Below, one piece after another: positions 15,019-47,972 of a stretch of 64,000 bases of DNA. Made by a program: the position numbers and the translations under genes. Source of the DNA: an uncultured Actinomycetes bacterium (GTDB lineage Bacteria; Actinomycetota; Acidimicrobiia; Spongiisociales; ZC4RG35); NCBI GenBank assembly GCA_963730285.1, contig CAVSQY010000014.1, forward strand, positions 11,992-75,991, read 5' to 3'. Numbering within the stretch: the first letter of the stretch is position 1; every line of letters starts with the position of its first letter. The notes beneath the pieces are model-generated. The model was given only the letters and a program-made list of their open reading frames with translations, was not told the DNA's origin and made no database searches.

Positions 15019-15951
15019 TCACCACCCAGTTTGTCGGGTAAGTGTCTGGTGGTCGGTCAGTGGAGCGGTGACGTAGCTGGACGGTGTTTCAGACACTGAT
15101 GTCAGGATCTCGATCAATGCGGACGTGGCGGGTGGGTCTGGCGGATCACCGTATGTCGCGGCGTAGATGTGGCGGGCGATGCCAGTGAGCTGAGTGGTGT
15201 GGATGCCCGGCGCCCGGTGAGCTTGTAGCGCGAGCCCGTTGAGTATGGCGACGCCCATTCCTGCGGCCACCAGCGACTGGGCGATGACCGTGTCGTCGAA
15301 GGAGTGGACGATGCGCGGTGAGAAACCGGCGCCTTCGCATGCTGTGATCGTGGCGGCTCGACAGTGATCGCATCCGCCCACCCAGGCGGAGTCATGGTGG
15401 TCCTCGAGACGCTGGTGGGGTTTGTCGCTGACGAGGAAGAGAGGGTCATCCAGCAGATGGGTGAGTCGCATGCCTTCCACCTCTTCCAAGGGAATGTCGG
15501 CGTGCCGGAAGATCAAGGCGATGTCGACGTGCCCCGAACGCAGCATCTTCAAGCCCTCGGCCGGGTGGGCATCGACGAGGGTCAACTCGATTCCTGGACT
15601 GGATCTGGCCAGCTCGGTGGCTGCCTTCGTTACGAGGGTGCTGAGGACCGTTTGGAAGCCGGCGAGTCGTACCCGTCCGGCACGAAGTCCGACGTAGGCG
15701 TCCAGCTCGACAGATGCGGCGTTCAGTCGGCCCAGGATCTCTGTCGCCCGCTGCGCCAGGAGCTCCCCTTCGGGGGTGAGTCGGATGCCGCGCCCTACCC
15801 GTTGGATGAGCGTGGCTCCAGTGGCGGCCTGCAGCCGCGCCAGGTGGTGACTGACCGATGGCTGGGAGTAATGCAGCTCCTTGGCTGCTTCGGTCACCGA
15901 CCCGTGACGGGCAACCGCTTCCAACACCTTGAGATGAGTCAAGCTCAGCAT
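15019..15951 (-). CDS. LysR-family transcriptional regulator
   Basis: N-terminal HTH LTHLKVLEAVARHGSVTEAAKELHYSQPSVSHHLARLQ; LysR substrate-binding C-terminal region. Divergent from 16076..16711. Confidence 0.85.
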   Translation of the reverse strand: MLSLTHLKVLEAVARHGSVTEAAKELHYSQPSVSHHLARLQAATGATLIQRVGRGIRLTPEGELLAQRATEILGRLNAASVELDAYVGLRAGRVRLAGFQTVLSTLVTKAATELARSSPGIELTLVDAHPAEGLKMLRSGHVDIALIFRHADIPLEEVEGMRLTHLLDDPLFLVSDKPHQRLEDHHDSAWVGGCDHCRAATITACEGAGFSPRIVHSFDDTVIAQSLVAAGMGVAILNGLALQAHRAPGIHTTQLTGIARHIYAATYGDPPDPPATSALIEILTSVSETPSSYVTAPLTDHQTLTRQTGW

Positions 15952-19615: not shown

Positions 19616-22399
19616 TCAGGACGAGCCGCCCGGATTCAGCACCTTCTGGAGTAGCTCGGGGATGTCCTGAAACACCAGGAAGTAGGCACTCGGGTCACAA
19701 TTGCAGGTCTGTGGCGGCGGCTTCTTCTGTGGCTCCTTCTTTTGACAGTCCGGCTCCTCGTTGACGTCGCGAACGTTCATCCGGAACCTCTCGCCATCGT
19801 GCACCGAGGTGGCCACCACCACGAAGTCCTCGTTGAAGGCCGTCTCCTCAGTGGGGAAGTCGGTCCATTCGCCGCTCGGGCTTCCCACCTTCCCCGGCCG
19901 ATACGACACTTGCACTTCCTCTCCCATCTCCCCGGTGACGCACGCATACTGACCGGAGGGGATGCTCACCTCCCAGCGAGCCGCCTGGAAGGCGTTGAGT
20001 TCCAGCTCGTAGTTGCCGGGGCCATCGAGCGATTTGGTGACCTTGGGCGGCTGATAGGCGATGAAGCCTCCTCCGGTGTCGGTGACGGCCACGTCGGTCA
20101 TGTGCTTGGAGAAGCTTTGATACATCCCGCTCATCTCATCTCGATTGGCCAGCTCGACCTGATCGAGTATCGGGTTGTTGCCACCGGGCAGGGCTTGGAT
20201 GATCTGGCCCAGCTCTTCATCGCCGAGAACGTTTACGACGTCCTGGAAGAAGATCCAGTTGTCGGCGCCCCTCTCGACCATTGGGCGTGAGGTCTCCTCC
20301 GCCCTCATGGCTGGGGCCAGTCTCCACTCCAGGTTCACGCCCGGATACACGACGTTGCTCATGTATTCGGCGAGGGCGTGGTTCCACCAGCGTCTTGCCA
20401 GATAGGTGGCCCCGGACTGACCGGGGAACAACAACGGGATGTAACAGTGGGCGATGTCGGCGGCCAGCTGCTGCTTGAAGTGGTCTGGGTTGCGCGGCTG
20501 CATCGGCTTGTTGATGAACACAAGGCAGACCGAGGGGTCGATGCGCTGCTCCACGAAGGTGTACGAGCCGCCGTGATGGGACAGCAACATCCAAATGCAC
20601 ACCGGCGGTGTGCCGTACTTGGCGATCGAGTCAGTCAATGCCTGCTGGGCCCAGAGCAGATGCGTCTCCCGACTCCAGCCATCTTCCTGACCTGCGATCG
20701 GAAACAGCACCGCACCTACCCATGCCCCGTATGTTCCGAGCTCGTAGCCGCTGGTGTCCCAGCCCGCCTGTTTCGGCTCGAGTCCGGCGCACTCGCCCGG
20801 CTCGATCGGCGGAGCGGAATAGTCGTGCGGCACGTCGTCATCGGGTGAGGCATAACCCCGGTCCTCACTGCCCTCTTGAAGCTGCTCCTCATCCGGGGGA
20901 GGCTCCTGCGCCAACAGGTCCGGGAAGATGAAGTCGCCCAGCGCAACGGTGAGCGACTTCGACGTCTCCGGGGGCGCCGTCCTGTTGAACCTCGGGGTCA
21001 GCAGGTCGAGAAGACGGGTCACCTCGTCCTTGGCCGGCCCCGGTTCGGCGGTGTCGAGGTACTCCTCCGCCAGGCTGATGATCCCCGTCCCGGAGTAGTC
21101 GAGCAGTTCGGGGTGTCGGAGCACGGCCCCGGAGTCGGCCTCGTCGGCGAACAGCTTCAGCGTGGCGATCAGCCCATCCTCGTGGGTCCACTCACCCGCC
21201 TCTTCCTTGGCCAGCAGGTTGTCGACATAGCCGAGGTTGGAGAGGTCCGGCTTTTCCTGCTGCACGATGATCGGGCCGCCCGGGATTCGGCCCAGTGCCT
21301 TGCTCGCCAGCTCCTTGGCGGTGTCGAACTGCTCATCAGGCCCCAGGTCGGGCAACGCCAGGACAATGCGGAACATGGCCCCACTCCATGCGACAGAGAT
21401 GACGTCTGCTTCGTGTGGGGAGGCGAACCCGCCTCCGGCCGGCACGTTCTCGAACCACATCGCAGAGTCGCCGACGCCATCCAACGGGACTCCGGGCACT
21501 CCATCGATGTTTGCGCCATCGCCGAAGTCTGATTCTGCAGCGGTCTGGACCTTGACGTATATCTCGGTGAGGATGAGCTTGGTGCACTCGAAGTCGCCGA
21601 ATTGGGTCAGATCGGCGACTTCGCCGAAGTTGTCCGACACGAAGACGTGATCCATCGCCGCGGCGCGGCCTTCCCGCTCCGGAGCGAGGAGGGCCTCGGC
21701 CTCCTGGTCGGTGACCAGGTCACACAAGTCGGCTTCGATCGGCTCTGGCGGTCCCAGCACCACCATGTCGATCGCTGACGCGGCGAGACCCTTGGCCAGG
21801 TCGAGGCGGTCCTGGTCACTGACGTCGGGTCGGCTTATCGAGAGCCTGATGAACAGATAGGCCTGTTCGGTCTCGGTGACGACACTCAGGGTTCCCATGT
21901 CTCCGCCACCGAACCACATCGCCACCTGGCCGACCCCGGACACGGGGACGCCGGCCACATCATCCAAAGTCGCTGCCGATCCGAAATCGTCGGGACTGCC
22001 GGGCTCGAGCTGGGCAGACCGCCCCTGCATGGCCGGCACATCATCGGGAGGTTGCCAGAGACAGCCCTCGTGTCCGGAGAACTGGATCAAGCCCACGTCA
22101 TCTGGAAGCCCGAGGGCGACGCCGACATCGTCGATCGAGATCAGGGTGCACCCGTCGAGCGGAGGGATTTGATGTCCTGTGTTGGCGGAGGTCGGGTCGG
22201 TTGATGGTGTCGGCCCCGAAGGGGAGGTTGTCGATGTGGCGGCCGCTTCCGGGCCTGAATCTCCCAGACGGCCGATGACCGCGACGATGACTGCGAGGGC
22301 AACGAGCCCGACGACCACCACCGGGAAGGGCTTGCCTTTCAGGAGATTCGTCAACGGGCTTCTGTCTTGTCGGCCTGGCTCCGGGCCTCCGGGGTCCAT
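19616..22399 (-). CDS. Large membrane-anchored extracytoplasmic protein (927 aa), two N-terminal Cys-containing DUF3558-like repeats plus a large uncharacterised C-terminal domain
   Basis: N-terminal TM (FPVVVVGLVALAVIVAVIG), Ser/Thr/Pro linker, two repeats each with C...C..W pattern (LDGCTLISIDDVGVALG...GCLWQ; ADLCDLVTDQEAEAL...FECTKL). C-terminus EEPDCQKKEPQKKPPPQTCNCD. Co-directional with, and 76 nt downstream of, the giant regulator gene. Confidence 0.65.
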   Translation of the reverse strand: MDPGGPEPGRQDRSPLTNLLKGKPFPVVVVGLVALAVIVAVIGRLGDSGPEAAATSTTSPSGPTPSTDPTSANTGHQIPPLDGCTLISIDDVGVALGLPDDVGLIQFSGHEGCLWQPPDDVPAMQGRSAQLEPGSPDDFGSAATLDDVAGVPVSGVGQVAMWFGGGDMGTLSVVTETEQAYLFIRLSISRPDVSDQDRLDLAKGLAASAIDMVVLGPPEPIEADLCDLVTDQEAEALLAPEREGRAAAMDHVFVSDNFGEVADLTQFGDFECTKLILTEIYVKVQTAAESDFGDGANIDGVPGVPLDGVGDSAMWFENVPAGGGFASPHEADVISVAWSGAMFRIVLALPDLGPDEQFDTAKELASKALGRIPGGPIIVQQEKPDLSNLGYVDNLLAKEEAGEWTHEDGLIATLKLFADEADSGAVLRHPELLDYSGTGIISLAEEYLDTAEPGPAKDEVTRLLDLLTPRFNRTAPPETSKSLTVALGDFIFPDLLAQEPPPDEEQLQEGSEDRGYASPDDDVPHDYSAPPIEPGECAGLEPKQAGWDTSGYELGTYGAWVGAVLFPIAGQEDGWSRETHLLWAQQALTDSIAKYGTPPVCIWMLLSHHGGSYTFVEQRIDPSVCLVFINKPMQPRNPDHFKQQLAADIAHCYIPLLFPGQSGATYLARRWWNHALAEYMSNVVYPGVNLEWRLAPAMRAEETSRPMVERGADNWIFFQDVVNVLGDEELGQIIQALPGGNNPILDQVELANRDEMSGMYQSFSKHMTDVAVTDTGGGFIAYQPPKVTKSLDGPGNYELELNAFQAARWEVSIPSGQYACVTGEMGEEVQVSYRPGKVGSPSGEWTDFPTEETAFNEDFVVVATSVHDGERFRMNVRDVNEEPDCQKKEPQKKPPPQTCNCDPSAYFLVFQDIPELLQKVLNPGGSS

Positions 22400-22474
22400 C
22401 AGTCCGCCTTAGGGCTACTGAAACCCAAGATACTCATGTGGACCGGGGTGGGGCGGCCGCGGCCCCGTCTGCCG

Positions 22475-25400
22475 TCAACTCAAGGTGAGGTCGGCGAAAT
22501 TGGCCCAGGATTTGCCGAATTCCCACCAGCCCTCGACAAGGGGTCGCCTCAGGGAGGTGTTCCTCGTGTAGACCAATGGGATCACCGCAGCCAGCTCGGC
22601 CACGGCGAGTCGGTCTGCCTGGTGGAAGAGCCCGAGCCGGGTCCGCTCGTCGCGCTCCATTCGGGCCCGCTCGACCAGGTCGTCGAATGCCTCGCTGGAG
22701 AATCTCCCGGTGTTGTCTGCTCCCTCGGTGTGAAGCAGCAGCCTGAGGAAGTACTCGGGATCGGTGTATCCCGGATACCACCAGGTTGGAGCGATATCGA
22801 CATCTTCCCAAACCTCACGAAGTCTTTGGGAGGAGGGGCCCAGAGTCGTGGTCTCCACCTCGATGCCCAAGTGTCGGCGCCACTGGCCGGCGGCTCTCTC
22901 CACCAGAGTCGTATAGACGATGTGGGGTATATCGAAGGCTGCCATCCGGATCGGCGCATCCGGTCGTGCCTGGCCGACGAGCGACCGCGCCAGGTCGACG
23001 TCGAAGACCGGTGCGACGTCGGGCGTGTGCCCGGCAAGTGCCGGGGGGACCACGCCACCGGTGGCCGGGATCAGATGCTCGCCCAATCCTTCGCACAGGG
23101 CGGCTCGATCCAACGATTGGGCCAGGGCGAGGCGAAGACGGGGATCGGCCATGTTCTTTCGGCCATGGTTGAGAACGAAGTAGATGAGCCCTGCCGTCGG
23201 TTCCCGATTCACCAGATCGGTTGGGATCTGCTCCGACCCGGCGCCGTCCCATGGCCCGCTGATCCAGGCGAGGTCGTGTCGTTCGTCGAGAAAGCCCTCC
23301 ATGACCTCGTTGACGGGCGCGGTGTGCCACACCACGGTCTCCACGTTTCCGAGACGATGGCCGACATAGTCGGGTCGGCGATCCAGGACGACACGATTGG
23401 CCTTGTGCTCAGTCCGACGGAAGGCTCCGCTGACCACCTCGACATCGAGATCGCACCACCGCTCGGGTTCCGCTTCGATGACATGACGGGGCTGAGGGCC
23501 GCAGTCCGGCCGGTTCAACATGCCGAGGAAGTAAGGAGCGGGCGCATTCAATGAGAACTGAACGACCCTGTCGTCCAACGCTCTCACGCCGATCAGGTCG
23601 GGGTCACTGCTGCGACCAAGCGCATGGTCGGCGGCGCCTTCGAGGACATAGAGCATGGCCACGCTCACCCCGGGGGAGTCGGGGTCGAGGTTGCGTTTCA
23701 GACCGAACTCGACGTCGTGGGCGGTGAGTGGGGCCCCGTCAGACCATTTGAGCCCGTCACGGAGGGTGAACCGGTAGATGAGACCGTCGTCGGAGATCTC
23801 CCAACGCTCCGCCAGGGAGGGGACGATGGTGTCGTCGGGCCATCTCTCCACCAGACGATCGAAAAGCGCCATCTGCAGCTGGATGTCCTGGAGGGCGTAG
23901 GAGCGGACCGGGTCGGGGACATCGAAAAAGGCCGGACCGGCGAAAAGGAGCGTCTCGGTGGCCTCCTGGCTCGGTGCGGGGCTCCACAGCTCGAAGGCCC
24001 TCTGATAGGTGGCGTTCGCCTCGGCGAACCGGAGGGCGGTGTGATAGGCCAGCCCCAACTTGAACAGGACCAGCGTGGTGGTGGGCGTGTCTCCACTCCC
24101 CTCCAGGAGAGGGAGAAGCTGTCGATAGTGCTCGATTGCCTCCTCCAAGGCATGGCGTCCCCGAGCCAGATCGCCTGCCCGTAGCAACGCTGGGGCGGCC
24201 CGGTCGTCGACCCCTGCCGCCGTCCAATGCCGGGCTAGAAGCTCAACGACCTCTTCGTCATTCCCCTCGAATTGGCGTTCCAGCCACTCGGCGGCATGTC
24301 GGTGCAGGGCCCGTCTCCTACCCTCGGGAAGGGTGCGATAGGCGGCCTCACGGGTGAGGGCGTGCTTGAACAGATATTCCGCCTGCGGCCATCGGCGTGC
24401 CTCGACCAGCAGGTCAGACCTCAAGAGGTCCTGGACGGCGGGAAGGACCCCACCTCTCTCGTCGGCGATGCCCTGGAGCAGGGGGAGGCCGAAGCTCCGG
24501 CCCAGCACTGAGGCCGAGGTCAGCACCATGTGGGTGGAAGGATCGAGACGGTCGATGCGCGACTGGACCACCTTCTCCACCGTCTCAGGCACGGTCAGGG
24601 CAGCGTCACGGTCGAAGACCCATCCCGACCCCGAAGGGGTGAGGGCGCCCTCATCGATCAGCGACCCGATCAGCTCCTCGAGATAGAAGGGGTTCCCCTC
24701 GGAGAGGTCGAGGAGCCGCCCGGTGGTCTCCTCGGGGAGATCGGCGGTGCCGAGTAGCGAGGAAAGCATGGCTCGTTGGTCGGAGTCGCCGAGGGCGCCG
24801 AGTGTGATCTCGGTGATCAGATGGGGCACCCGATGCCGGGCCGCCTCTGCGATGCGCCACGACACGTGACCGGGAGACGGGCGGCTGCTGACCACATACA
24901 GGATGCGGTGACTCTCGGCGAGTGAGGTCAGATTCCCTAGAAGCTCCACCGAAGTCGGGTCGGCCCAGTGGGCGTCTTCGATAACCATCGCGGTGGGGGA
25001 CCTCTCTGAGATGGCAGTGAGCAGCTCTGCCACCACCTCGAACGTGCGGAATTGGATTGCTTCCGGCGCCAGCGATAGCCGGGTCTGCTGGTCGGGGGTC
25101 AGGCTGAGACCGAGAAGACGCGTCAGATAGGCATACATCGGCTCGGCCGGCTCGTCCAGCAGCTCTTCGAGGCGGTTGTGCAGCGTTCGCCGGGAGGGGA
25201 GGTCCTTTTCGTCGATGCCCAACCCGAGCCATGACCGGATCAGGTCGCGGAACGGCCAGTAGGGGGTGGCCTCACCGTAGGGATCACAGTGACCGAGCAG
25301 CCAGGTAAACCCGATCCCGGAAGGCGACCGGCGCAGCTCGGAGATGATCCGAGTCTTTCCCACGCCGGCGTCGCCACTGAGTACCAGGACTCCGCCGATG

Positions 25401-26740
25401 CCGCGTTCGAGCGATTCGAGCATGTGGCCCGCCTGGGCCATCTCTGACTCACGACCGACAAGTGGGGCGCGGAGACGTCTTCCCAGCCTTGCCTTGTCGG
25501 CGGTTCGGCGCACCGCCGTCGGCCGCCACATGACTCCCGATCCCGAAGAAGCGGACTCCTCCCAGTCGAAGGCGTCGATCATGAGACGACGGGTGTGGTC
25601 GTCGACCAGCACCGAATGGGGGCCTGGGTCGCTGAGCATTGTCTGAAGCGGTCCCTCTTCCATGCCGAAACCGGTCTCGAAGGGCAGTGTCACCGGCAGT
25701 GTGGACACGACACACCGGCCCTCACCGGTGGGCCCCAATGTCTCCCCGACGGCCAGCGCTGCCCGGATGGCTCGATAGGTGTCGTCCTCACGGGCGATGG
25801 GTGCCCCGAAGACGGCAAGGGCACGCGTCCCGTCTTCGTCGACGATCGTCCCTCCGAATCGGGCCAATGCCGAACGCGTCGCCTCTAGTGCGGCGGCCGA
25901 GCCGGTGGCCACCAAGAGCAGGGTGGCGAGCCGGTTCCCTGGGGGCAATGGCCGACCGATGACAGTTGCAGGACGGGCCTGCGGTCGATGTGACGGGGAT
26001 GGCGAGAGAGTCGGGTCCTGTGCCAGGATCCGATCGAGCAGGTTCTGGAGCTCGGGCCCAGGCTCGATCCCCAGTTCCTCGATGAGAAGCGCGCGCACGG
26101 TGTCGAAGGCCCGAAGTGCGTCGGCCTGCCGGCCCGAACGATAGAGCGCCAGCACGTATCGGCTCCACAAGTCCTCACGCAACGGGTGCTCTTCGAGCAG
26201 GGAGTGGAGGTCGACTGCGGCCTGGTCGTGACTGCCGGATCGGAGTTGGGCATCGGCCATGTCGACCTGGGCCTGAAGACGCACCGCCTCCAATCTGGCC
26301 TTGAGCGGGCGGACGACGTCGGCCTCGCGGGCGTCCACCAGGGGCTCGCCACGCCACCAGGAGAGGGCCTCACCGAGCCGACCGACCGTCGTCTCCGGGT
26401 CCTCCCACGTCGCCTCCCTGGCCTCGGTGACTGCCAGGACGAATCGGTGGGCGTCGACGTCTGATGTCTCGAGTGCCAGCTGGTAGCCGGGACCCTTGGT
26501 GGCGATCAACCCTTCGGGGAGCACCGAGCGCAGATGGTGGATGTAGGTCTGAAGTGCTTTGGCCGCCGTCGCCGGAGGGGTTTCGCCCCAAAGGCCGTCG
26601 ATGAGCCTGTCGCTGGTGATCAACCTTCCCACGTCGGCCGCCAGCAACGTCAGAAGGGCGCGCTCCATCGGACGACTGACCTCGATTCGGTGGCCATCGT
26701 CACTCAATTCCAGCGGTCCGAGCACCCCGACGAGCACCAC
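22475..26740 (-). CDS. 1421-aa multidomain one-component regulator: SARP-type winged-helix DNA-binding + BTAD / degenerate class-III cyclase-like domain / STAND (NB-ARC-like) P-loop ATPase / helical-TPR region / C-terminal solute-binding-protein family 5 (SBP_bac_5) domain
   Basis: aa 1-250: LGPLELSDDGHRIEVSRPMERALLTLLAADVGRLITSDRLIDGLWGE + BTAD (…YRSGRQADALRAFDTVRALLIEELGIEPGPELQNL). aa 270-390: cyclase-homology-like RLATLLLVATGSAAALEA...FGGTIVDEDGTRALAVFGAPIAREDDTYRAIRAAL (metal-binding Asp positions not conserved). Walker A VLVLSGDAGVGKT (aa ~451-463), Walker B MVIEDAHWAD, GNPFYLEEL motif. aa ~935-1421: ...LAERWEISDDGLIYRFTLRDGLKWSDGAPLTAHDVEFGL = canonical SBP_bac_5 signature (DppA/OppA/NikA family). 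No signal peptide, so the SBP domain is cytoplasmic. Confidence 0.85.
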   Translation of the reverse strand: MVLVGVLGPLELSDDGHRIEVSRPMERALLTLLAADVGRLITSDRLIDGLWGETPPATAAKALQTYIHHLRSVLPEGLIATKGPGYQLALETSDVDAHRFVLAVTEAREATWEDPETTVGRLGEALSWWRGEPLVDAREADVVRPLKARLEAVRLQAQVDMADAQLRSGSHDQAAVDLHSLLEEHPLREDLWSRYVLALYRSGRQADALRAFDTVRALLIEELGIEPGPELQNLLDRILAQDPTLSPSPSHRPQARPATVIGRPLPPGNRLATLLLVATGSAAALEATRSALARFGGTIVDEDGTRALAVFGAPIAREDDTYRAIRAALAVGETLGPTGEGRCVVSTLPVTLPFETGFGMEEGPLQTMLSDPGPHSVLVDDHTRRLMIDAFDWEESASSGSGVMWRPTAVRRTADKARLGRRLRAPLVGRESEMAQAGHMLESLERGIGGVLVLSGDAGVGKTRIISELRRSPSGIGFTWLLGHCDPYGEATPYWPFRDLIRSWLGLGIDEKDLPSRRTLHNRLEELLDEPAEPMYAYLTRLLGLSLTPDQQTRLSLAPEAIQFRTFEVVAELLTAISERSPTAMVIEDAHWADPTSVELLGNLTSLAESHRILYVVSSRPSPGHVSWRIAEAARHRVPHLITEITLGALGDSDQRAMLSSLLGTADLPEETTGRLLDLSEGNPFYLEELIGSLIDEGALTPSGSGWVFDRDAALTVPETVEKVVQSRIDRLDPSTHMVLTSASVLGRSFGLPLLQGIADERGGVLPAVQDLLRSDLLVEARRWPQAEYLFKHALTREAAYRTLPEGRRRALHRHAAEWLERQFEGNDEEVVELLARHWTAAGVDDRAAPALLRAGDLARGRHALEEAIEHYRQLLPLLEGSGDTPTTTLVLFKLGLAYHTALRFAEANATYQRAFELWSPAPSQEATETLLFAGPAFFDVPDPVRSYALQDIQLQMALFDRLVERWPDDTIVPSLAERWEISDDGLIYRFTLRDGLKWSDGAPLTAHDVEFGLKRNLDPDSPGVSVAMLYVLEGAADHALGRSSDPDLIGVRALDDRVVQFSLNAPAPYFLGMLNRPDCGPQPRHVIEAEPERWCDLDVEVVSGAFRRTEHKANRVVLDRRPDYVGHRLGNVETVVWHTAPVNEVMEGFLDERHDLAWISGPWDGAGSEQIPTDLVNREPTAGLIYFVLNHGRKNMADPRLRLALAQSLDRAALCEGLGEHLIPATGGVVPPALAGHTPDVAPVFDVDLARSLVGQARPDAPIRMAAFDIPHIVYTTLVERAAGQWRRHLGIEVETTTLGPSSQRLREVWEDVDIAPTWWYPGYTDPEYFLRLLLHTEGADNTGRFSSEAFDDLVERARMERDERTRLGLFHQADRLAVAELAAVIPLVYTRNTSLRRPLVEGWWEFGKSWANFADLTLS

Positions 26741-26779
26741 ACAACCGTACCGAGATCGATTGCGGCACAGGGCGCCTTC

Positions 26780-26799
26780 TTACCGGGCGTTTACCGGGC
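26780..26799. promoter_or_regulatory. Direct repeat TTACCGGGC x2 with 11-bp phasing in the divergent regulator/DUF4242 intergenic region (candidate SARP-type binding site)
   Basis: cTTACCGGGCgtTTACCGGGCt at 26779-26800; located 40 nt from the regulator start (26740, -) and 50 nt from the DUF4242 start (26850, +). Confidence 0.35.
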
Positions 26800-26849
26800 T
26801 AGGGCAATTTCGACGCCGCAAGGGTCAATCGATCTGAGGAGGTATCAGA

Positions 26850-27103
26850 TGCCCCTGTTCATGGATGTGCACCAGCAACTGCCCGACGGTGCGACCGAAT
26901 CGGACGTGGCCGAAGCTCACGCCGCCGATCTGGCCACTCAGGACAGGTTCGGAGTCCACTACCAGCGGTACTGGGTTGATGAGAAGGCGGGCAAGGTGTT
27001 CTGTCTGGTGGAGGCACCCGACGCCGATGCCGCGGTCGCGGTGCACCGCGAGGCGCACGGGTTGGTCGCCGACGAGATCTACCCCGTCAGCGAACACAGT
27101 TGA
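26850..27103 (+). CDS. DUF4242 family protein (SCO4226-like), paralogue of 2312..2563
   Basis: MPLFMDVHQQLPDGATESDVAEAHAADLATQDRFGVHYQRYWVDEKAGKVFCLVEAPDADAAVAVHREAHGLVADEIYPVSEHS; strong SD gaggagg upstream. Confidence 0.8.
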
Positions 27104-27117
27104 TAGGGGGAAGGGCG

Positions 27118-27672
27118 ATGCGAAAGACCACGATTGCCGTGATGACTGCCCTGGCCGTGATGCTGGGGGCGGTCCCGGCTCTGGCCCACGACCACGGCCA
27201 TGAAGAGTGGCGCGACGTGAGACACGATCTGCGCCAGGCCTCCAAGGTGACAGCCAAGTATCACCGGGTGTCGAAGGCGATCCGGGACGGGTTTGGCCCA
27301 TTCGCCATACCCGAAGAGGATGGGGGGACCCTTCTCACCATCCGCGGCGAGGCGATTACCTGTTTCGACAGTCCCACCGGGGGGATGGGCGTCCACTATG
27401 TCCGTCACATCGATGGCACCGTGGACCCGGCGGACCCCGAGGCTCTCGTCTATGAGGTGGGCCGGCATGGGCGGCTCCGGCTGGTGGCCTTGGAGTACAT
27501 CATCCCCGAGGAGTTCGTCGATCCGGCAGACCCGCCGATGCTCTTCGGTCGGACGATGCACCACCACTCGTATCTGCCCGTCTTCATCCTCCACGTGTGG
27601 TTGTGGAAATGGAACCCATCGGGCCTGTTCGCCGACTTCAACCCGAGAGTAAAGGACTGTCCCGCGGCCTGA
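27118..27672 (+). CDS. Secreted hypothetical protein (His-rich N-terminus after signal peptide)
   Basis: Signal peptide MRKTTIAVMTALAVMLGAVPALAHDHGHEEW; 15 nt after the DUF4242 stop, likely co-transcribed. Confidence 0.6.
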   Translation: MRKTTIAVMTALAVMLGAVPALAHDHGHEEWRDVRHDLRQASKVTAKYHRVSKAIRDGFGPFAIPEEDGGTLLTIRGEAITCFDSPTGGMGVHYVRHIDGTVDPADPEALVYEVGRHGRLRLVALEYIIPEEFVDPADPPMLFGRTMHHHSYLPVFILHVWLWKWNPSGLFADFNPRVKDCPAA

Positions 27673-30322: not shown

Positions 30323-31813
30323 TCAGGTCGCGATGGGCAGGGAAAGCTCAAAGATGCTCTTGCCGTCTTCGTAGTTGTAGGTGAGGTCTCCGTCCATCAA
30401 GGATGCGAGCTTCCGCGAGACGGTGAGCCCGAGCCCGATGGATGCGGCCAGTCTCTCCCTGTTCGAGGCCCGCTGATATGGCTCGAATATGGTGCCTTGG
30501 TCGTCGAGCGGTATGCCCTCCCCATCGTCGACAACCGCAACACAGGCCAGAGGCCCGCAGTCGTAGGTCCGCACTTCGACGGTGTCGCCTCCATAGCGGA
30601 AGGCATTGGAGATCAGGTTGCGCAGGACCTGGCGAACCCGGGCGGGATCACCCATCCCGCGGATCGACGGCCCGCTGAGCACTACCCGTCCGCCCTCGCC
30701 GTTTTCGCCCAGGGCCTCGACTACCTGTGCCGACTGGGCCCGGAGGTCAACCGATACCTTGGCCACCTTGAGCGTCTCGTTGTCGGCCCGCGCCGCCACC
30801 AGCAAGTCCTCGACGATGTTGGTCAGGTCGGCGGTTTGATCGGCGATGCTCGTGACGATCTCGACTTGCTCGGCGGGCGACAGGGATGGGAGCTCGCTCC
30901 GCATCAGCTGGGCGAATCCCAGCACTGCGGTGAGTGGTATCCGCAGCTCGTGGGACACCGATGCGATCAGCTGATCTTTCGAGTCGAGCATCCCGCGAAG
31001 CTGGTCTTGAGCCTCGACCTGCTCGGTGATGTCGACCACATTCGCCACCAGATGGAGAGGCTTGCCTTCGGAGTCCCGCACCAGGGCGGTTGAGATGATC
31101 CCGTATGAGGTCGAACCGTCGCGGCGGAGATAGTGGAGTTTGGCTTCCGCCGAGGCCACCTCCCCATTGGCGACCTGGCGAAAGCGGGTCATGCTCTCCT
31201 CGCGGTCGTCGGGCGCTACCACCTCGAGAATGGTTCGACCCTCGATCTCCGCTTCGGTGTAACCGAGCATGTTGCAGCCAGCCGCGTTCACCCGGAGGAA
31301 TCGCCCGTCCGTGGGGCTCACCAGGGCCATTCCCGAGGCGGCCGACTCGAAGGCGAGGCGGAACCTTTCCTCACTGGTGGCGACGGCTTCCTCTGCGCGC
31401 TTTTGGCCGGTGATGTCCTGCATCTGCACCACGAAATGTTGAATTTCTTCCTCGGGATCCACAACGGGGGCAACATTGATTCGGGCCCAGACGATGCTGC
31501 CGTCGCTGTGGAGATACCGCTTCTCCCAGTTGGCCACTGGTGTCTCGCCGTCGAGGAGAGCTCGTAGCCATTCTTCACTCTGGGCCATGTCGACTGGGTG
31601 GGTGATATCGGCGAAGTGCCGGCCGTCGAGCGCACCGGGCTCGCGACCCAGCATCATGTTGAGAGATCGGTTGGTTGCAATGAAGTCGCCCTCGCGGGAG
31701 GTGACAGCCATCGCTACCGAGGCGTGCTCAAAGATGGCGCGAAAGTGCCGATCGGAGTCCCACATGGGGTTTGTTTGAGAGTTGTCCTGGTTGTTGCGAG
31801 TGCTCATCGGCAA
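30323..31813 (-). CDS. Cytoplasmic PAS-PAS sensor histidine kinase (orphan)
   Basis: Two PAS modules (RAIFEHASVAMAVTSREGDFIATNRSLNMMLG...; RFRLAFESAASGMALVSPTDGRFLRVNAAGCNMLGY...), H-box DQLIASVSHELRIPLTAVLGFAQLM, HATPase GDPARVRQVLRNLISNAFRYGG...GLGLTVSRKLASLMDGDL. Confidence 0.85.
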   Translation of the reverse strand: MPMSTRNNQDNSQTNPMWDSDRHFRAIFEHASVAMAVTSREGDFIATNRSLNMMLGREPGALDGRHFADITHPVDMAQSEEWLRALLDGETPVANWEKRYLHSDGSIVWARINVAPVVDPEEEIQHFVVQMQDITGQKRAEEAVATSEERFRLAFESAASGMALVSPTDGRFLRVNAAGCNMLGYTEAEIEGRTILEVVAPDDREESMTRFRQVANGEVASAEAKLHYLRRDGSTSYGIISTALVRDSEGKPLHLVANVVDITEQVEAQDQLRGMLDSKDQLIASVSHELRIPLTAVLGFAQLMRSELPSLSPAEQVEIVTSIADQTADLTNIVEDLLVAARADNETLKVAKVSVDLRAQSAQVVEALGENGEGGRVVLSGPSIRGMGDPARVRQVLRNLISNAFRYGGDTVEVRTYDCGPLACVAVVDDGEGIPLDDQGTIFEPYQRASNRERLAASIGLGLTVSRKLASLMDGDLTYNYEDGKSIFELSLPIAT

Positions 31814-42096: not shown

Positions 42097-44052
42097 CTAT
42101 CCGCCGCCGGTAGTCGTTGTAGTCGTCGGGACCGTGGTCGTGGTCGTCGTCGAAGTCGTCGTGGTCGGTGGCGCCTCGAACTTGCCCACGGTCACCGTGA
42201 CGATGTCACCGGGCACCAGGGTGGCCCCCACCTGAGGATTCTGGGAGACGATGGTCCCATCCTGACCGGGATCCGCCACGGGTTGGGTGGTGGTCGACAC
42301 CCGAAGCACCAGGCCGACGTCTTTGAGGATCGCATCCGCCTGGTCTGCAGTGAGGCCGGTCAATGATGGCACGTCCACCGGCTGGGGACCCCGGGAGACC
42401 ACGAGGAGGATGGTGTCGCCCGATTGGACCTCGAGCCCCGGCTCGGGATCGGTGCGGATGACCAGGCCGGTGTCGATCGTGCTCGAATACTCCTCGTTGA
42501 CGGTCACCTTCAGGCCAAGATCGGTGAGGGCCGCGGTGGCATCACGCTCGGTCTGCGTGGTGACATCGGGCAGCTCATAGACCTCGGGACCGGTCGACAC
42601 CACCAGGTTGACCGGGGCTTGTGACCCGATGCGAACCCCCGCACCCGGGTCCTGTTCGATGACCACGCCCTCGGCGAAGGTCGCGTCCGGGCGCTCGTCC
42701 ACCGTGCCCACGGTGAGGTTCGATTCCTCGAGGAGGCGGCGGGCGTTCTCCAACGTCTGGCCGATCAGCGGAGGCACCGGGAACTCCTCGGCACCCGTAG
42801 AGACATAGACCTGGATCACGGTGGCCTTGGCGGCCTGAGTCCCGAAGGGCGGGTTGGTCCGAGTCACATTCCCCACTTCTTCGGTGTCGGAGGACTCAAG
42901 GAACACGGTGACCTCGAAACCGTCCGCCTGGAGACGAGCCAGGGCGGCCTCTTGGGTCAGCCCGGTGACATTGGGGATTTCGATCAAATCGGACTCGTTG
43001 GTGCCGCCGGCCAGGCGGAAGAGGAAGAAGAGCAGGATTGCCAGGGCAATGAGAAGGCCAAATGCAGTCAGGATGAACGGAAGCTGAGACGCCGGTTCTT
43101 CCTCCAACTCGCGGTAGACCTCGTCGGGCGGCACCGTGGCAGGAGGCACCGGTGTCGTCATGAGCCTGGTCGAGCTGTCCCCGTTGCCCGGGACGCCGAC
43201 CGGAACTGCCAACGGCATCCCCACCGGCTCGCCCTTGAGCACGGTGAGCAGGTCAGAGCGCATCTCCGAGGCGGTCTGATAGCGAGCGACCGGGTCCTTT
43301 CGCATCGCCTTCGTAACCACCGCATCCAGCGACTGGGACACGTCGGAGTTCAGTGAGGAAGGGGTGGGTGCATCGGTGGAGACATGCTGGAAGGCAACCG
43401 ACATCGGGCTGTCACCGGTGTAGGGCGGGCGCCCGGTCAGCATCTCGTAGAGCACCACCCCGAGCGAGTAGACGTCGCTTCGCTCGTCGGCCGACGCCCC
43501 CTGGGCCTGCTCGGGACTGAAGTACGTGGCCGTGCCGATGACCGCACCGGTGCGGGTCAGCTCCTGGCTGTCGTCCCAGGCCCGGGCGATGCCGAAGTCG
43601 GTCACCTTCACCGTGCCGTCCTTTGCCAACAGGATGTTCCCCGGTTTGACGTCACGATGGACCAAACCGGCCTGGTGGGCAACCGAAAGGGCGGCGGCGA
43701 CTTCGGAGGCGATCTCGGTGGCACGTCGGGGAAGCAGGGCGCCCTCCGACTTGAGGACGTCGCGAAGCGAGCGACCGTCGACCAACTCCATCACGATGAA
43801 GTACGTGTTCTGGGCTTGGCCCCAGTCGTAGATGCCCACGATGTTGGGATGGCTCAGATTCGCCGCCGCCTGGGCCTCACGGCGGAATCTCTTCACGAAA
43901 GCCTCGTCGGCCGAGTATTGGGAGTGGAGGACCTTGATCGCCACTCTGCGGTTGAGCAGGGTGTCCACACCCTCATACACGTCGGCCATGCCACCTCGGG
44001 CGAGATGGGACGTGATCTGATAGCGATCTGTCAGTGTGGTCTGGGGTTCCAT
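42097..44052 (-). CDS. pknB: Ser/Thr protein kinase PknB with four C-terminal PASTA domains
   Basis: Kinase subdomains GGMADVYEG, VAIKVL, HRDVKPGNILL, DFGIA; TM; repeated PASTA units. ATG at 44052 preferred over the track's TTG at 44088. Confidence 0.9.
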   Translation of the reverse strand: MEPQTTLTDRYQITSHLARGGMADVYEGVDTLLNRRVAIKVLHSQYSADEAFVKRFRREAQAAANLSHPNIVGIYDWGQAQNTYFIVMELVDGRSLRDVLKSEGALLPRRATEIASEVAAALSVAHQAGLVHRDVKPGNILLAKDGTVKVTDFGIARAWDDSQELTRTGAVIGTATYFSPEQAQGASADERSDVYSLGVVLYEMLTGRPPYTGDSPMSVAFQHVSTDAPTPSSLNSDVSQSLDAVVTKAMRKDPVARYQTASEMRSDLLTVLKGEPVGMPLAVPVGVPGNGDSSTRLMTTPVPPATVPPDEVYRELEEEPASQLPFILTAFGLLIALAILLFFLFRLAGGTNESDLIEIPNVTGLTQEAALARLQADGFEVTVFLESSDTEEVGNVTRTNPPFGTQAAKATVIQVYVSTGAEEFPVPPLIGQTLENARRLLEESNLTVGTVDERPDATFAEGVVIEQDPGAGVRIGSQAPVNLVVSTGPEVYELPDVTTQTERDATAALTDLGLKVTVNEEYSSTIDTGLVIRTDPEPGLEVQSGDTILLVVSRGPQPVDVPSLTGLTADQADAILKDVGLVLRVSTTTQPVADPGQDGTIVSQNPQVGATLVPGDIVTVTVGKFEAPPTTTTSTTTTTTVPTTTTTTGGG

Positions 44053-44089
44053 AGGAGTCGACGGATTGTAGGAATGCTCCGGGTGCAAC

Positions 44090-45547
44090 TCACGGGGTTC
44101 TCTGCAGCCAGACCTGGATCAGCTGTGCTGCGATGGGCGCCGCCACCGACCCGCCCGAGGCCGATTCACCCAGGTCGCCACCCTCCTCGACCAGCACCGC
44201 CAGAGCGATCGAAGGATCTTCGACCGGGGCGAAGCCGATGAACCATGGGTTGGGAAGCCCGTTCGGGCCCGAGGACGTTCCGGTCTTCCCCGCCACCCGC
44301 ACGCCGGGCACCGCGGCACTCCGCCCGGTCCCTTCGGTGACTACCCGCTCCATCATCTGGGCGAGGACGTCGGATGTCGCCGGGTCCATGGCCCGGCCCA
44401 GCGGATTCGAGGTGAATGTCTTCACGGTGTTCCCATCGGCGTCGAATAGTCGATTGACCAGGTAGGGGGCGGGGGTTACTCCATGGTTCGCTACCGCCGC
44501 CGCCACCATTGCCATGTTTAACGGCGAAGCCCTGACATCGCGTTCCCCGATCCCGCTTTGGGCCAGGGCGGCCGGATCGTCGGCCAGCTCAGCCACCGGG
44601 TATGCCGCCTGGGGCACCTTCCAGGGAAAGTCCAGGTCGGTGTTGAAACCGAGGGCGTCGGCGGTGATCCCGATGTCCTCGGCGCCGAGCCGAACGGAGA
44701 GATCGGCGAACACCGTGTTGCAGGAGACCACGAACGCCTTGAGGAGCGTTATCGACTGGCCGTCGTTGCAGGATCGGCCGTTGGCATTGGATATGGTTGC
44801 CGTAGATCCGGGAAGGTCGAACGCGACCGGATCGGGGAATGTCGTCGACGGGTCGGCCTCGCCCGTGTCGAGGGCGGTGGCGGCCACAACCGTCTTGAAC
44901 GTCGATCCGGGCGGGTAGATCTCCTTCGTGGCACGGTCGTTGAGTGGTCGGGTCTCGTCGGCGAGCAGCCCTTCCCACATCGCGGCGGCATCGGCGCCGA
45001 GTAGCGACTCGGGGTCGAAGGACGGGGATGACACCGCGGCCAGGATGGCCCCGGTCCGCGGGTCGAGAGCCACCACCGCGCCTTTCTGACCACCCAGAGC
45101 CTCATAGGCGGCACGTTGCAACGGCGCATATACCGTCATCTCCAAGCTTTGAGGGCGAAGGTCGCGCCCCAGGATCACGGTGACCAGGTCGCTAATGGTC
45201 AGATCGCGTTTGGAGCGGAGCTCGCTCGAGTAGGCCAGCTCGAGACCGGACGATCCGACCAAGAAGGAGTTGTAGCCAACGATGTGGGCGAATGCCTCAC
45301 CTTCGGGGTATTCACGTTGGAACGACCGGGGATCGTCGGGGTCCTCCACCGAGCGCGCCACCACCGTCCCATCGGCGGTGACGATCAACCCTCTCTCCTT
45401 TCCCCGGTCGGCGAGGGCCGGTCGGGAGTTGCGAGGGTCGGCCTTGAGGGCGTCGGCATGGATCACCTGGATCCAGCTCACCGCCATGAGCAGGGCGAAG
45501 AACCCCACGAAGACCCCGAGGGAGAGACGCCGGATGGGGCCGTTCAT
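44090..45547 (-). CDS. pbpA: Penicillin-binding protein (transpeptidase), PbpA
   Basis: SxxK (PPGSTFKTV), SxN (SCN), KTG (GKTGTS). Overlaps the rodA stop (ATGA). Confidence 0.9.
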   Translation of the reverse strand: MNGPIRRLSLGVFVGFFALLMAVSWIQVIHADALKADPRNSRPALADRGKERGLIVTADGTVVARSVEDPDDPRSFQREYPEGEAFAHIVGYNSFLVGSSGLELAYSSELRSKRDLTISDLVTVILGRDLRPQSLEMTVYAPLQRAAYEALGGQKGAVVALDPRTGAILAAVSSPSFDPESLLGADAAAMWEGLLADETRPLNDRATKEIYPPGSTFKTVVAATALDTGEADPSTTFPDPVAFDLPGSTATISNANGRSCNDGQSITLLKAFVVSCNTVFADLSVRLGAEDIGITADALGFNTDLDFPWKVPQAAYPVAELADDPAALAQSGIGERDVRASPLNMAMVAAAVANHGVTPAPYLVNRLFDADGNTVKTFTSNPLGRAMDPATSDVLAQMMERVVTEGTGRSAAVPGVRVAGKTGTSSGPNGLPNPWFIGFAPVEDPSIALAVLVEEGGDLGESASGGSVAAPIAAQLIQVWLQRTP

Positions 45548-46851: not shown

Positions 46852-46855
46852 GGGC

Positions 46856-47970: not shown

Positions 47971-47972
47971 CG

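Follow-up and report, generated by a model that had tools for sequence, protein, structure and literature searches.

The locus examined here raises the question of whether a solute-binding protein, of a family (SBP5) whose members are normally separate and exported, can serve as the sensor of a cytoplasmic transcription factor. The original prediction described a single cytoplasmic protein of 1421 aa at 22475..26740 of the window (the whole 64,000-nucleotide stretch of DNA analysed), in which a SARP output and a STAND ATPase are followed by a C-terminal SBP5 domain. This protein, its relatives and its gene neighbourhood were analysed, and the SBP5 domain is most readily read as part of a recurrent sensor module.

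Architecture and integrity of the regulator

The reading frame contains no internal stops and comprises the following features.

22475..26740, minus strand: regulator gene, 1421 aa, GTG start; SARP, cyclase remnant, AAA_16 NOD, TPR and SBP5
26024..26671, minus strand: SARP DNA-binding and activation module; Trans_reg_C aa 24-88, BTAD aa 95-239
25481..25939, minus strand: eroded class III cyclase-like remnant, about aa 268-420
24206..25480, minus strand: STAND NOD of AAA_16/MalT-LAL type, aa 421-845
25352..25375, minus strand: Walker A motif G456-DAGVGKT-463, within the NOD
23987..24196, minus strand: short TPR linker or arm, aa 849-918; TPR_12, E 8.9e-6, under the gathering score
22478..23965, minus strand: complete cluster-C (OppA/DppA-like) SBP domain, the presumed sensor, aa 926-1421
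22766..22780, minus strand: subfamily motif W1321-Y-P-G1324-Y1325, located by alignment to 2z23 and by conservation

In the public NCBI/ENA annotation (P0001, 1397 aa) the start is placed 24 codons too far downstream; the GTG used here is the one to which the orthologue N-termini (M-x-[IV]-x-[VIL]-LG-x-LE-V) align. Pfam models matched in the order Trans_reg_C, BTAD, AAA_16, TPR_12 and SBP_bac_5. The predicted domain order was thus retained for Trans_reg_C, BTAD, TPR and SBP_bac_5, with AAA_16 as the NOD and without NB-ARC or Guanylate_cyc matches. Neither a signal peptide nor a TM segment was found in the 1421 aa, the absence of a TM helix being judged from the highest Kyte-Doolittle mean over 19 residues (1.19). 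With a DNA-binding domain at its N-terminus and no TM helix, the protein is classed as cytoplasmic, as originally proposed.

Fusion of a SARP/STAND gene with a separate periplasmic SBP gene by frameshift or misassembly would also yield such a frame, and the usual occurrence of SBP5 proteins as separate, exported proteins might suggest it; no support for it was found. Independent metagenomes supplied fourteen full-length homologues, whose alignment is continuous from one end to the other and includes the TPR-SBP5 junction, and GC content at the three codon positions is even across all five modules. Inspection of aa 900-990 revealed no signal peptide or lipobox remnant at the junction, and no ABC permease or ATPase genes lie in the neighbourhood. 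An NOD also lies upstream of SBP5 in at least 93 of its 150 nearest relatives. The full architecture recurs in about 15 orthologues at 34-68% identity, so the frame is not a frameshift artefact; that explanation is refuted by the comparative data and retains practically no credence.

SARP, cyclase remnant and NOD

Trans_reg_C (aa 24-88) scored 35 bits, and BTAD (aa 95-239) was matched with E 3e-37. The NCBIfam AfsR match was confined to aa 5-266, and the AfsR and BagI/FevR models together matched within aa 5-286 only. The label 'AfsR-like' therefore suits the SARP part and fails for the NOD: AAA_16 was matched at aa 426-614 (E 1.7e-24) and Pfam gave no NB-ARC match anywhere in the regulator. 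On these profiles the NOD is of MalT/LAL type, not NB-ARC as in AfsR. Its Walker B motif reads ...VIED589, a further conserved motif is F791-K-H793-A-L, and G456, G459, G461, K462, D589, H591, F791 and H793 are invariant in the homologue alignment. The TPR region that follows is conserved in all relatives.

A pseudo-cyclase had been proposed between SARP and NOD. Pfam Guanylate_cyc has no match in the window regulator, both metal-binding Asp residues are gone and there are two internal deletions. An HMM trained on the cyclase domains of related proteins nevertheless matched aa 283-335 at 43 bits and, weakly, aa 374-396. The NCBIfam TOMM_kin_cyc alignment (TIGR03903) spans aa 293-877, and orthologues P0015 and P0019 carry PF00211 at the alignment columns of the remnant, where the window protein is gapped. 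For these reasons the pseudo-cyclase is regarded as real and heavily eroded.

The SBP5 domain and its peptide-anchor positions

SBP_bac_5 was matched at aa 971-1341 over profile positions 1-366 of 368 (E 2.4e-56), and no signal peptide was found in aa 926-1421. An intact SBP5 domain therefore does occupy the position of a STAND sensor. The AF2 model of the domain (pLDDT 94.7, pTM 0.92) has the expected SBP fold, with TM scores of 0.85-0.89 against liganded DppE, OppA and MppA. Full-length alignment to OppA, MppA and DppE gave 22-25% identity.

In OppA and MppA, Asp419 and Arg413 are the peptide anchors, and Asp419 holds the peptide alpha-ammonium group (PMC3173086). In the alignment to 2z23 these residues correspond to G1324 and P1318 of the window protein, and Gly at the Asp419-equivalent position is fixed in its subfamily. 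Because the terminus-anchoring Asp and Arg are lost, an ordinary peptide whose N-terminus is free is unlikely to be the ligand. The same loss means that analogy with peptide SBPs cannot argue for ligand binding, and the domain could now be a structural or protein-binding module. Among 134 related STAND-fused SBP5 domains, 96 have Asp at the equivalent position and 19 have Gly; the prevalence of Asp makes peptide binding by the ancestral module probable.

Recurrence of the NOD-TPR-SBP5 module

SBP5 is the best-conserved part of the protein across homologues, with long invariant motifs, and purifying selection extends along the whole domain without singling out surface patches. Its nearest 150 representatives at 50% identity were taken from 1.84 billion proteins. 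At least 93 of these are C-terminal domains of STAND proteins with a detectable upstream NOD: 22 cyclase-NOD-SBP5, 24 SARP-containing, 14 kinase-NOD-SBP5 and 33 NOD-SBP5. The remaining 57 are SBP5-only, mostly fragments that begin inside the TPR, and about 5 of the 150 have a signal peptide. In the close relatives P0016, P0243 and P0260 the order is cyclase-AAA_16-SBP5, with PF00211 intact. In relatives that lack SBP5, other TPR-containing C-terminal regions occupy its position.

Because the effector at the N-terminus can be a SARP, a class III cyclase or a Ser/Thr kinase while the STAND fusion persists, NOD-TPR-SBP5 is interpreted as a recurrent sensor module, which fits the sensor role first assigned to the domain. 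The SARP+SBP5 fusion is not unique to this locus. The same architecture is common in metagenomes, where automatic annotation gives it names like 'ABC-type oligopeptide transport system substrate-binding subunit/DNA-binding SARP family...'.

The divergent cassette and its putative promoter

A putative target operon diverges from the regulator gene across 108 bp.

26780-26788 and 26791-26799, plus strand: two exact 9-nt direct repeats TTACCGGGC, 11 bp apart
26805..26810, plus strand: -10-like hexamer CAATTT, 38 nt 5' of the ATG
26849..27103, plus strand: gene 1, SCO4226-like protein (PF14026), 84 aa, cytoplasmic
27118..27672, plus strand: gene 2, secreted protein, 184 aa, signal peptide MRKTTIAVMTALAVMLGAVPALA

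The close family (at least 47% identity) was examined at eight loci. The SCO4226-like gene is head-to-head with the regulator in all eight, and the secreted-protein gene follows in six. At the locus of a more distant homologue (P0019, 34% identity) the neighbour differs. In other Acidimicrobiia the same cassette adjoins either an LAL regulator (AAA_16+GerE; L089) or a small LuxR regulator. Nothing in the window ties the regulator to a biosynthetic gene cluster. The regulator probably controls these two neighbouring genes.

No sigma70 -35/-10 consensus was found in the intergenic region. A GGAGG Shine-Dalgarno sequence lies at about 26836-26842, ahead of the SCO4226-like gene. At SARP promoters 8 bp separate the 3' repeat from the -10, and the repeats are spaced by 11 or 22 bp (PMC10936776). 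With the promoter-proximal heptamer TTTACCG (26790-26796) 8 nt 5' of CAATTT, the arrangement, as read from the sequence, matches this canonical geometry. The TTACCGGGC repeats are putative SARP-binding heptamers oriented towards the SCO4226-like gene. Across the loci, heptamer-N8-[C/G]ANNNT has a unique match 33-38 nt before the ATG in seven of eight; the hexamers thus read C/G-A-N-N-N-T, not T-A-N-N-N-T. With two repeats only, the lag-11 signal in the window is weak by itself (p about 0.07). The phasing reappears in orthologous intergenic regions (Fisher combined p about 2e-7, a value that overstates independence because the loci compared are homologous). In L001, L002 and L087 the repeats reach to about 10 nt from the start codon of the regulator, so they may also, or instead, serve autoregulation.

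Proposed mechanism

Taken as a whole, an ATP-dependent STAND switch that senses through SBP5 and activates the divergent cassette is given a probability of about 0.6. The N-terminal SARP would bind the 11-bp-phased heptamers in the 108-bp intergenic region. The AAA_16 NOD would act as ADP/ATP switch and oligomerisation core, and SBP5 on its short TPR arm would take over the sensing done in related regulators by a long array of TPRs. At rest, the SBP5/TPR part would keep the NOD closed and ADP-bound. We infer that a cytoplasmic ligand entering the inter-lobe cleft may cause Venus-flytrap closure and so lift autoinhibition, after which ADP would be exchanged for ATP and the protein would multimerise. 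The multimer would set several SARP domains on the tandem repeats, and these domains would bring RNA polymerase to the promoter, which has no -35. Transcription of the SCO4226-like gene and of the secreted-protein gene behind it would thereby be switched on. The activation scheme is modelled on MalT/PH0952 (PMC6468293). AfsR offers a second template.

Alternative explanations

It is possible, although unlikely, that SBP5 has no small ligand and is a protein-protein or oligomerisation platform or an NOD cap, docking for example the SCO4226-like protein; in that case the true signal would come in by another route, such as phosphorylation or the cyclase remnant. The loss of both peptide anchors in the subfamily points this way, as does a strongly conserved, surface-type C-terminal motif (GWWEFGKSW) to which nothing corresponds in the alignment with OppA. 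Direct physical partnership would also fit the conservation of the SCO4226-like protein, which is ~70-85% identical between loci (by eye) against 50-55% for the regulators. Yet the entire three-domain SBP fold is kept, hinge included, with very high model confidence, selection acts over the entire domain and not on surface patches alone, and most related STAND-fused domains retain the Asp anchor.

Sensing of nickel, another metal or a metal chelate in the manner of NikA/CntA, with an SCO4226-type protein that sequesters nickel and a secreted protein rich in His as targets, is considerably less probable. NikA is a member of SBP family 5, and nickel induces SCO4226 of S. coelicolor 2-3 fold, a protein that also binds Ni2+ (PMC4186839). 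The secreted protein of the window has the mature N-terminus HDHGHEE, and its family carries invariant His and Cys residues. Against this, OppA, MppA and DppE were recovered with E values of 1e-41 to 1e-36, and NikA with about 3e-6 over the N-terminal 60 residues only. The 84-aa protein scores 80.8 against the NCBIfam SCO4226 cut-off of 125, its Ni-1 site (Asp43/Ser46/His76) reads Asp/Ala/Tyr, and HDHGHEE is not kept in orthologues. Nickel affinity of SCO4226 itself is weak (Kd 10 uM, solvent-exposed sites; PMC4186839). The nickel link is weak, and with Gly1324 and Pro1318 at the peptide anchors neither half of the 'peptide- or metal-binding' assignment is upheld. An anti-phage (Avs/NLR-like) receptor whose SBP5 recognises a phage protein or peptide is very improbable. 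STAND NTPases with varied C-terminal sensors are widespread bacterial defence receptors (PMC13581612), but PADLOC gave no matches for the regulator and its two neighbours, and the regulator's effector, a DNA-binding SARP, is neither a nuclease nor a protease nor toxic in any other way. The partner cassette looks housekeeping, and in three loci the regulator gene sits within a nuo operon, not a defence island.

Relation to known regulators

AfsR-type large SARPs share the N-terminal SARP (winged helix and BTAD), STAND NTPase and helical repeats with the window regulator, and their promoters share the 11-bp repeat spacing and 8-bp distance to the -10 (PMC10936776). ADP/ATP switch logic is expected in both, and an NB-ARC NOD defines the AfsR-like group (bioRxiv 10.64898/2026.09.02.748808). 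AfsR of S. coelicolor consists of SARP, NB-ARC NOD and TPR, whereas the window protein has an AAA_16/MalT-type NOD, a cyclase remnant between SARP and NOD, and a TPR cut to about 80 aa before a 496-aa SBP5 that AfsR lacks.

The AAA_16-type NOD is shared with MalT/LAL and SARP-LAL regulators (e.g. PimR type), and an LAL regulator adjoins the same cassette in another Acidimicrobiia genome. In MalT a TPR-like sensor takes maltotriose, and the inducer-bound C-terminal sensor governs ATP-dependent multimerisation (PMC6468293). MalT/LAL proteins differ in having a C-terminal LuxR/GerE HTH output and a TPR/SUPR array as sensor, in place of an N-terminal SARP and an SBP5 Venus-flytrap fold. Cyclase-ATPase-TPR proteins (TIGR03903) have a cyclase-like domain, AAA_16 and helical repeats in the same order; M. 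tuberculosis Rv0386 is presumably of this multidomain type. In the window protein the cyclase is eroded and without metal-binding Asp, the output is SARP transcription and the C-terminus is SBP5.

The periplasmic cluster-C SBPs (OppA, MppA, DppE, DppA) share the three-domain fold end to end. The window domain differs from them in having no signal peptide, lipobox or cognate ABC permease genes, in its covalent joining to a cytoplasmic ATPase, and in the Asp419/Arg413 to Gly/Pro replacements. Venus-flytrap binding-protein folds serve as cytoplasmic regulator sensors in LacI/GalR, LysR effector domains and AmiC. These are smaller type I or type II PBP folds with direct allostery on an HTH or partner, whereas the SBP of the window regulator is large, belongs to family 5 (cluster C) and is coupled to a STAND NTPase switch. 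Our literature search found no paper on the SARP-STAND-SBP5 architecture or its receptor family. Intracellular receptors of this kind form a large family, of which the window regulator is a member.

Reading frame and gene calls

The regulator was encoded by a single open reading frame of 1421 codons (22475..26740, -) with a GTG start and no internal stops. GC content at each of the three codon positions was equal across all five modules, and the best 19-residue Kyte-Doolittle mean was only 1.19; the regulator is therefore a single coding unit that lacks any signal peptide or membrane-spanning segment. When 5.8 billion proteins were searched, the protein itself was returned together with 14 full-length homologues (34-68% identity) with identical domain order, and the homologue alignment was unbroken through the junction between the TPR region and SBP5, the C-terminal SBP_bac_5 domain. 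The original prediction, of one protein carrying the described modules with an SBP5 domain free of any signal peptide, was borne out by the frame, by the Pfam order and by an N-terminus that is a DNA-binding domain with no hydrophobic segment. The SARP+SBP5 architecture for which it had proposed a search was found in all 14 homologues. The regulator is not unique to this genome and belongs to a sizeable, unstudied family.

A frameshift, concatenation or assembly artefact was excluded by the continuity of the 14 homologues over the junction, the uniform codon GC and the existence of other proteins joining a NOD (STAND ATPase switch domain) to SBP5. An exported or membrane-tethered SBP was ruled out by the absence of a transmembrane segment and signal peptide.

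The self-match in the public databases (P0001) has 1397 aa and is called 24 codons short. This NCBI/ENA call begins at Met25 and so loses a conserved beta-strand, the first of the SARP domain (26669..26740, -). JGI has an identical 1421-aa copy under the name 'ABC-type oligopeptide transport system substrate-binding subunit/DNA-binding SARP family...'. One NCBI orthologue (P0007, MFP3913466.1) is labelled 'ABC transporter substrate-binding protein', a misleading name given that the protein is a regulator of the cytoplasm.

Domain composition of the regulator

The Pfam scan placed the following domains on the regulator.

aa 24-88, Trans_reg_C, 35.2 bits (cut-off 26.2)
aa 95-239, BTAD, 128.7 bits, E 3e-37
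aa 426-614, AAA_16, 87.7 bits, E 1.7e-24
aa 849-918, TPR_12
aa 971-1341, SBP_bac_5 (PF00496), 191.9 bits, E 2.4e-56, profile positions 1-366 of 368

SARP membership was indicated by an OmpR-type winged helix followed by BTAD and by the AfsR and BagI/FevR NCBIfam models, which aligned to aa 5-286. The ATPase had been expected to match NB-ARC or AAA_16; no NB-ARC match was obtained at E up to 0.1, and AAA_16 and AAA_22 matched instead. The NCBIfam AfsR equivalog scored 151.9 (cut-off 1430) and was confined to aa 5-266, the SARP part, so the label 'AfsR-like' fits that part alone: lacking NB-ARC, the regulator is not an AfsR-type large SARP. Nor is it a SARP-LAL, since these end in a LuxR/GerE helix-turn-helix and have no TPR, whereas the regulator has no GerE domain and ends in TPR and SBP_bac_5. 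Its NOD and cyclase-like segment make it kin to the cyclase-ATPase-TPR proteins.

Features of STAND NTPases of the MalT/AAA_16 clade were present, comprising Walker A, Walker B and a conserved region extending to about aa 845. In the homologue alignment the invariant NOD residues were G456-x2-G-x-GK462-[TS] and hhhhE-D589. The conserved histidine motif reads F791-[KR]-H793-A-L rather than F/Y-H-D, the switch motif of AfsR-like large SARPs, and H793 is at most a candidate counterpart of AfsR His603. As Walker A (G456-DAGVGKT), Walker B (VIED589) and F-K-H793 are all intact, the switch is probably functional. The regulator is predicted to work in the same manner as large SARP/STAND activators.

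Between BTAD and AAA_16, the class III cyclase domain (PF00211) fell below every threshold of the Pfam scan. An HMM of 182 positions, for which 24 cyclase domains were taken from relatives, matched aa 283-335 at 43 bits and aa 374-396 weakly, NCBIfam TIGR03903 (kinase/cyclase fusion) aligned with aa 293-877, and orthologues P0015 and P0019 have PF00211 at the same alignment columns. Homology of this segment to class III cyclases is indicated by these alignments. All that is retained of the 182 model positions is 35-87 and 145-167. Class III cyclases have a full catalytic domain with two metal-binding aspartates; here the segment carrying the first is deleted and the second is Thr. 'Pseudo-cyclase' was therefore the right term, in the sense of an eroded remnant, although the Pfam Guanylate_cyc match expected with it was not found. 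Most simply, the remnant is a structural spacer or dimerisation relic.

Fold and putative ligand site of the SBP5 domain

The C-terminal SBP5 domain had been predicted, and SBP_bac_5 matched over nearly its whole profile; the domain begins at aa 926. Regulator residues 931-1421 aligned from one end to the other with the periplasmic proteins OppA, MppA and DppE (E 1e-41 to 1e-36); the match to NikA was much weaker (E ~3e-6) and limited to the N-terminal 60 residues. An AlphaFold2 model of the domain, made with a 74-sequence alignment, gave a pLDDT of 94.7 and a pTM of 0.92. Its nearest structures by Foldseek were liganded DppE, OppA and MppA (TM 0.85-0.89; DppE 8ay0 at E 1.6e-42, TM 0.89), and open, unliganded forms fitted less well (TM 0.68). 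Given the confident model and these TM scores, the full cluster C fold is intact, and the domain is modelled as a complete bilobed cluster C fold with the extra domain.

SBP5 was the best-conserved part of the whole regulator in the homologue alignment, with long invariant motifs (DIQLQMALFDRLVERWPDDT, LNRPDCGPQPRH, ATGGxVPPxLAGHTPD, WYPGYTDPEY and GWWEFGKSW). Asp419 and Arg413 anchor peptides in OppA and MppA, the former through a salt bridge with the alpha-ammonium group and the latter by holding the carboxylate (PMC3173086). The regulator has Gly1324 and Pro1318, respectively, at these positions when aligned to 2z23 by HMMER; the surroundings of OppA W397/R404 aligned in a variable region, with lower confidence. 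Gly1324 sits within the subfamily-invariant W-Y-P-G-Y motif. Among 134 related fused SBP5 domains, the Asp419 equivalent was Asp in 96 and Gly in 19, the latter being the subfamily of the window protein.

ORFs scanned within about 8 kb of the regulator included no ABC transporter components. Among the neighbours were a LysR regulator, a RibD_C protein, Glucodextran_B proteins, a membrane protein, the SCO4226-like and secreted-protein genes, a glyoxalase, a COX1-like membrane protein and a PAS histidine kinase. By sequence signature and fold the sensor is a member of SBP family 5, but it lacks the export signal, the partner ABC permease and ATPase genes and the peptide anchors.

The SBP5 module across relatives

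With the SBP5 domain alone as query, HMMER was run exhaustively against 1.84 billion cluster representatives and gave 1067 matches at E <= 1e-30. Domain classes were assigned by Pfam scans of seven proteins and local classification of the best 150 matches. SBP5 began at least 200 residues into the protein in 100 of these 150, most often between positions 700 and 1100 of proteins 1100-1600 residues long.

Domain classes among the best 150 of the 1067 SBP5 relatives
cyclase-NOD-SBP5: 22
SARP-containing: 24 (including 3 SARP-cyclase and 3 SARP-kinase)
Ser/Thr-kinase-NOD-SBP5: 14
NOD-SBP5: 33
SBP5 only: 57

Most of the 57 SBP5-only relatives were fragments starting inside the TPR or SBP domain; a signal peptide or lipobox was present in only about 5 of them, and one short form shares a 90%-identity cluster with a 1225-aa protein. 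NOD-TPR-SBP5 is therefore the constant part and the N-terminal output domain is exchangeable, a pattern characteristic of sensor modules. Relatives matching only the N-terminal 60% of the regulator had other, TPR-containing C-terminal regions, so that SBP5 takes the place of the usual STAND sensor. Its predicted location at the STAND sensor position was upheld by this pattern.

Within the best 80 loci of a scan of GTDB species representatives, the SARP-SBP5 form was absent and only cyclase- and NOD-SBP5 forms (L006-L012) were recovered. Some giant proteins, P0241 (2843 aa) and P0245 (2704 aa), carry four tandem stretches related to the regulator SBP5; P0241 was the top match of the exhaustive search (E 4e-194 summed over four copies). 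In the literature, of which journal coverage was incomplete so that absence is not proof, no SBP5 or SBP-type sensor was found on a STAND, SARP, cyclase or kinase protein, and a 2026 survey of prokaryotic STANDs does not mention one.

Divergent cassette and its probable promoter

The genes and promoter element facing away from the regulator were as follows.

26805-26810, -10-like hexamer CAATTT, 8 nt past the promoter-proximal heptamer
26849..27103, +, SCO4226-like gene, 84 aa (PF14026 E 7e-22), upstream of and divergent from the regulator
27118..27672, +, secreted-protein gene, 184 aa with a clear signal peptide, 14 nt after the SCO4226-like gene

The window was compared with seven fetched close-family loci (L001, L002, L003, L005, L086, L087 and L088). 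The SCO4226-like gene was head-to-head with the regulator in all seven, with a secreted-protein homologue beside it in five. The distant homologue P0019 (34% identity) has a different neighbour. In two other Acidimicrobiia the cassette lies directly downstream of another regulator, an 851-aa LAL (AAA_16 + GerE; L089, 4064-7555) or a small LuxR-type protein of 134 aa (L090, 6149-7615). The same cassette beside different regulators indicates that regulators have been swapped at a constant target. Glucodextran_B neighbours are common to L089 and the window. In L001 (477-17621), L002 (3987-12359) and L087 (924-7276) the regulator and cassette interrupt a complex I (nuo) operon, with nuoD (Complex1_49kDa) on one side and nuoE (2Fe-2S_thioredx) on the other; no nuo context surrounds the window copy.

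The 108-bp intergenic region contains two exact copies of TTACCGGGC spaced by 11 bp (26780-26788 and 26791-26799). Orthologous regions contain two to five degenerate heptamers (T-N-N-A-C-C-G; G-T-T-A-T-C-G in L003) in an 11- or 22-bp register. Over the eight loci, which are related to each other, lag 11 was the sole best autocorrelation lag in five and tied best in a sixth (combined shuffle p ~2e-7). In the direction of the SCO4226-like gene, exactly 8 nt separate the promoter-proximal heptamer from a hexamer [C/G]-A-N-N-N-T; 33-38 nt with GGAGG and then ATG come next. The heptamer-N8-hexamer pattern occurred once, at that place, in 7/8 loci. In L088 it is followed by a remnant mini-ORF (~1340-1620; ATGCCCCTGGTACATGAATAG, MPLVHE*) that has a separate GGAGG. 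Lying between the SARP-type promoter and the true start of the SCO4226-like gene, this mini-ORF resembles a duplicated 5' end of that gene, and the public call (130 aa) starts in the wrong place.

SARP target promoters have direct repeats 11 or 22 bp apart, with the 3' repeat 8 bp from the -10 element (PMC10936776), and the repeat geometry of the window and its orthologues agrees with this rule. Scanning 22300..27200 for sigma70 consensus elements and terminators gave no -35/-10 pair, as expected for an activator-dependent promoter, and no terminator. From the repeat geometry we infer that the regulator binds the heptamers. The regulator's own promoter may be influenced by the repeats as well; in L001, L002 and L087 they come within about 10 nt of the regulator start codon.

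Ligand and proposed mechanism

The ligand had been proposed to be a peptide or a metal. With both OppA/MppA anchors replaced, the peptide-binding reading is not supported for the regulator itself. The fused SBP5 module overall looks like a cytoplasmic peptide sensor, and the window subfamily looks re-specialised. Nickel sensing would agree with the family name of the SCO4226-like neighbour and with the mature N-terminus of the window secreted protein (HDHGHEE), but that N-terminus is not kept in orthologues. The neighbour scored above the Pfam cut-off (77.8 bits against 28.5 for PF14026) but under that of the NCBIfam SCO4226 equivalog (80.8 against 125), and the SCO4226 Ni-1 site Asp43/Ser46/His76 reads Asp/Ala/Tyr in it. 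Nickel sensing was downgraded because this site is not conserved and, with an SBP5 domain nearer OppA than NikA, has little beneath it. PADLOC returned no match for the regulator and its two neighbours as a defence system.

A ligand-gated switch acting on the cassette is preferred, patterned on MalT/PH0952 (PMC6468293) and also on AfsR. The resting regulator would be a monomer with its NOD closed around ADP, held by contacts with the arm and sensor. Capture of a ligand between the SBP5 lobes would release these contacts, ATP would displace ADP, and the NOD would multimerise. The SARP domains would then be arrayed on the phased repeats and would recruit RNA polymerase to the SCO4226-like promoter. 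We give this picture as a whole a probability of about 0.6, with higher confidence in the architecture and target than in the ligand gating. The original observation on the regulator is confirmed, and its interpretation partly supported.

Other genes of the window

On the strand of the regulator, and 75 bp downstream of it, lies a gene for a 927-aa protein (19616..22399, -). An N-terminal membrane anchor (FPVVVVGLVALAVIVAVIG) and a Ser/Thr/Pro-rich linker are present, DUF3558 matches only weakly, and the protein is not conserved beside regulator orthologues. A conserved actinobacterial cell-division/envelope signalling cluster (42097..48623, -) comprises a PknB-type kinase with four PASTA domains, a PBP transpeptidase, FtsW/RodA, a PP2C phosphatase, FhaB and FhaA, and agrees with the window being actinobacterial (Acidimicrobiia-like) in origin. 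No link to the regulator was seen for a soluble double-PAS histidine kinase (30323..31813, -) or a LysR-type regulator (15019..15951, -).

Significance

To our knowledge, native signals have been identified for almost none of the large SARPs, LALs and other STAND regulators of bacteria. These missing signals are the main obstacle to using such regulators, for example in awakening silent gene clusters. SBPs frequently co-purify and co-crystallise with bound ligand, and the sensor of this regulator therefore belongs to a domain class with unusually easy ligand identification. Its likely output promoter can be read directly from the sequence. Together, an SBP sensor and a readable promoter offer a tractable system for how ligand binding reaches the NOD of a STAND protein.

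Under the names 'ABC transporter substrate-binding protein' or 'oligopeptide transport system substrate-binding protein', databases list hundreds of cytoplasmic signalling proteins, as fragments or full copies, which bears on annotation and on inferring metabolism from metagenomes. Tentatively, and at slightly short of even odds, NOD-TPR-SBP5 proteins may form a large class of intracellular receptors, as yet undescribed, within Actinomycetota and Chloroflexota, in which Venus-flytrap closure would gate a STAND ATPase with SARP activation, cNMP synthesis or Ser/Thr phosphorylation as output. Most members, which keep the anchoring Asp, would be cytoplasmic peptide or muropeptide sensors. The window subfamily, with its P-G-Y motif, would respond to another ligand, which may be N-blocked or not a peptide, and control a conserved envelope-directed two-gene cassette.
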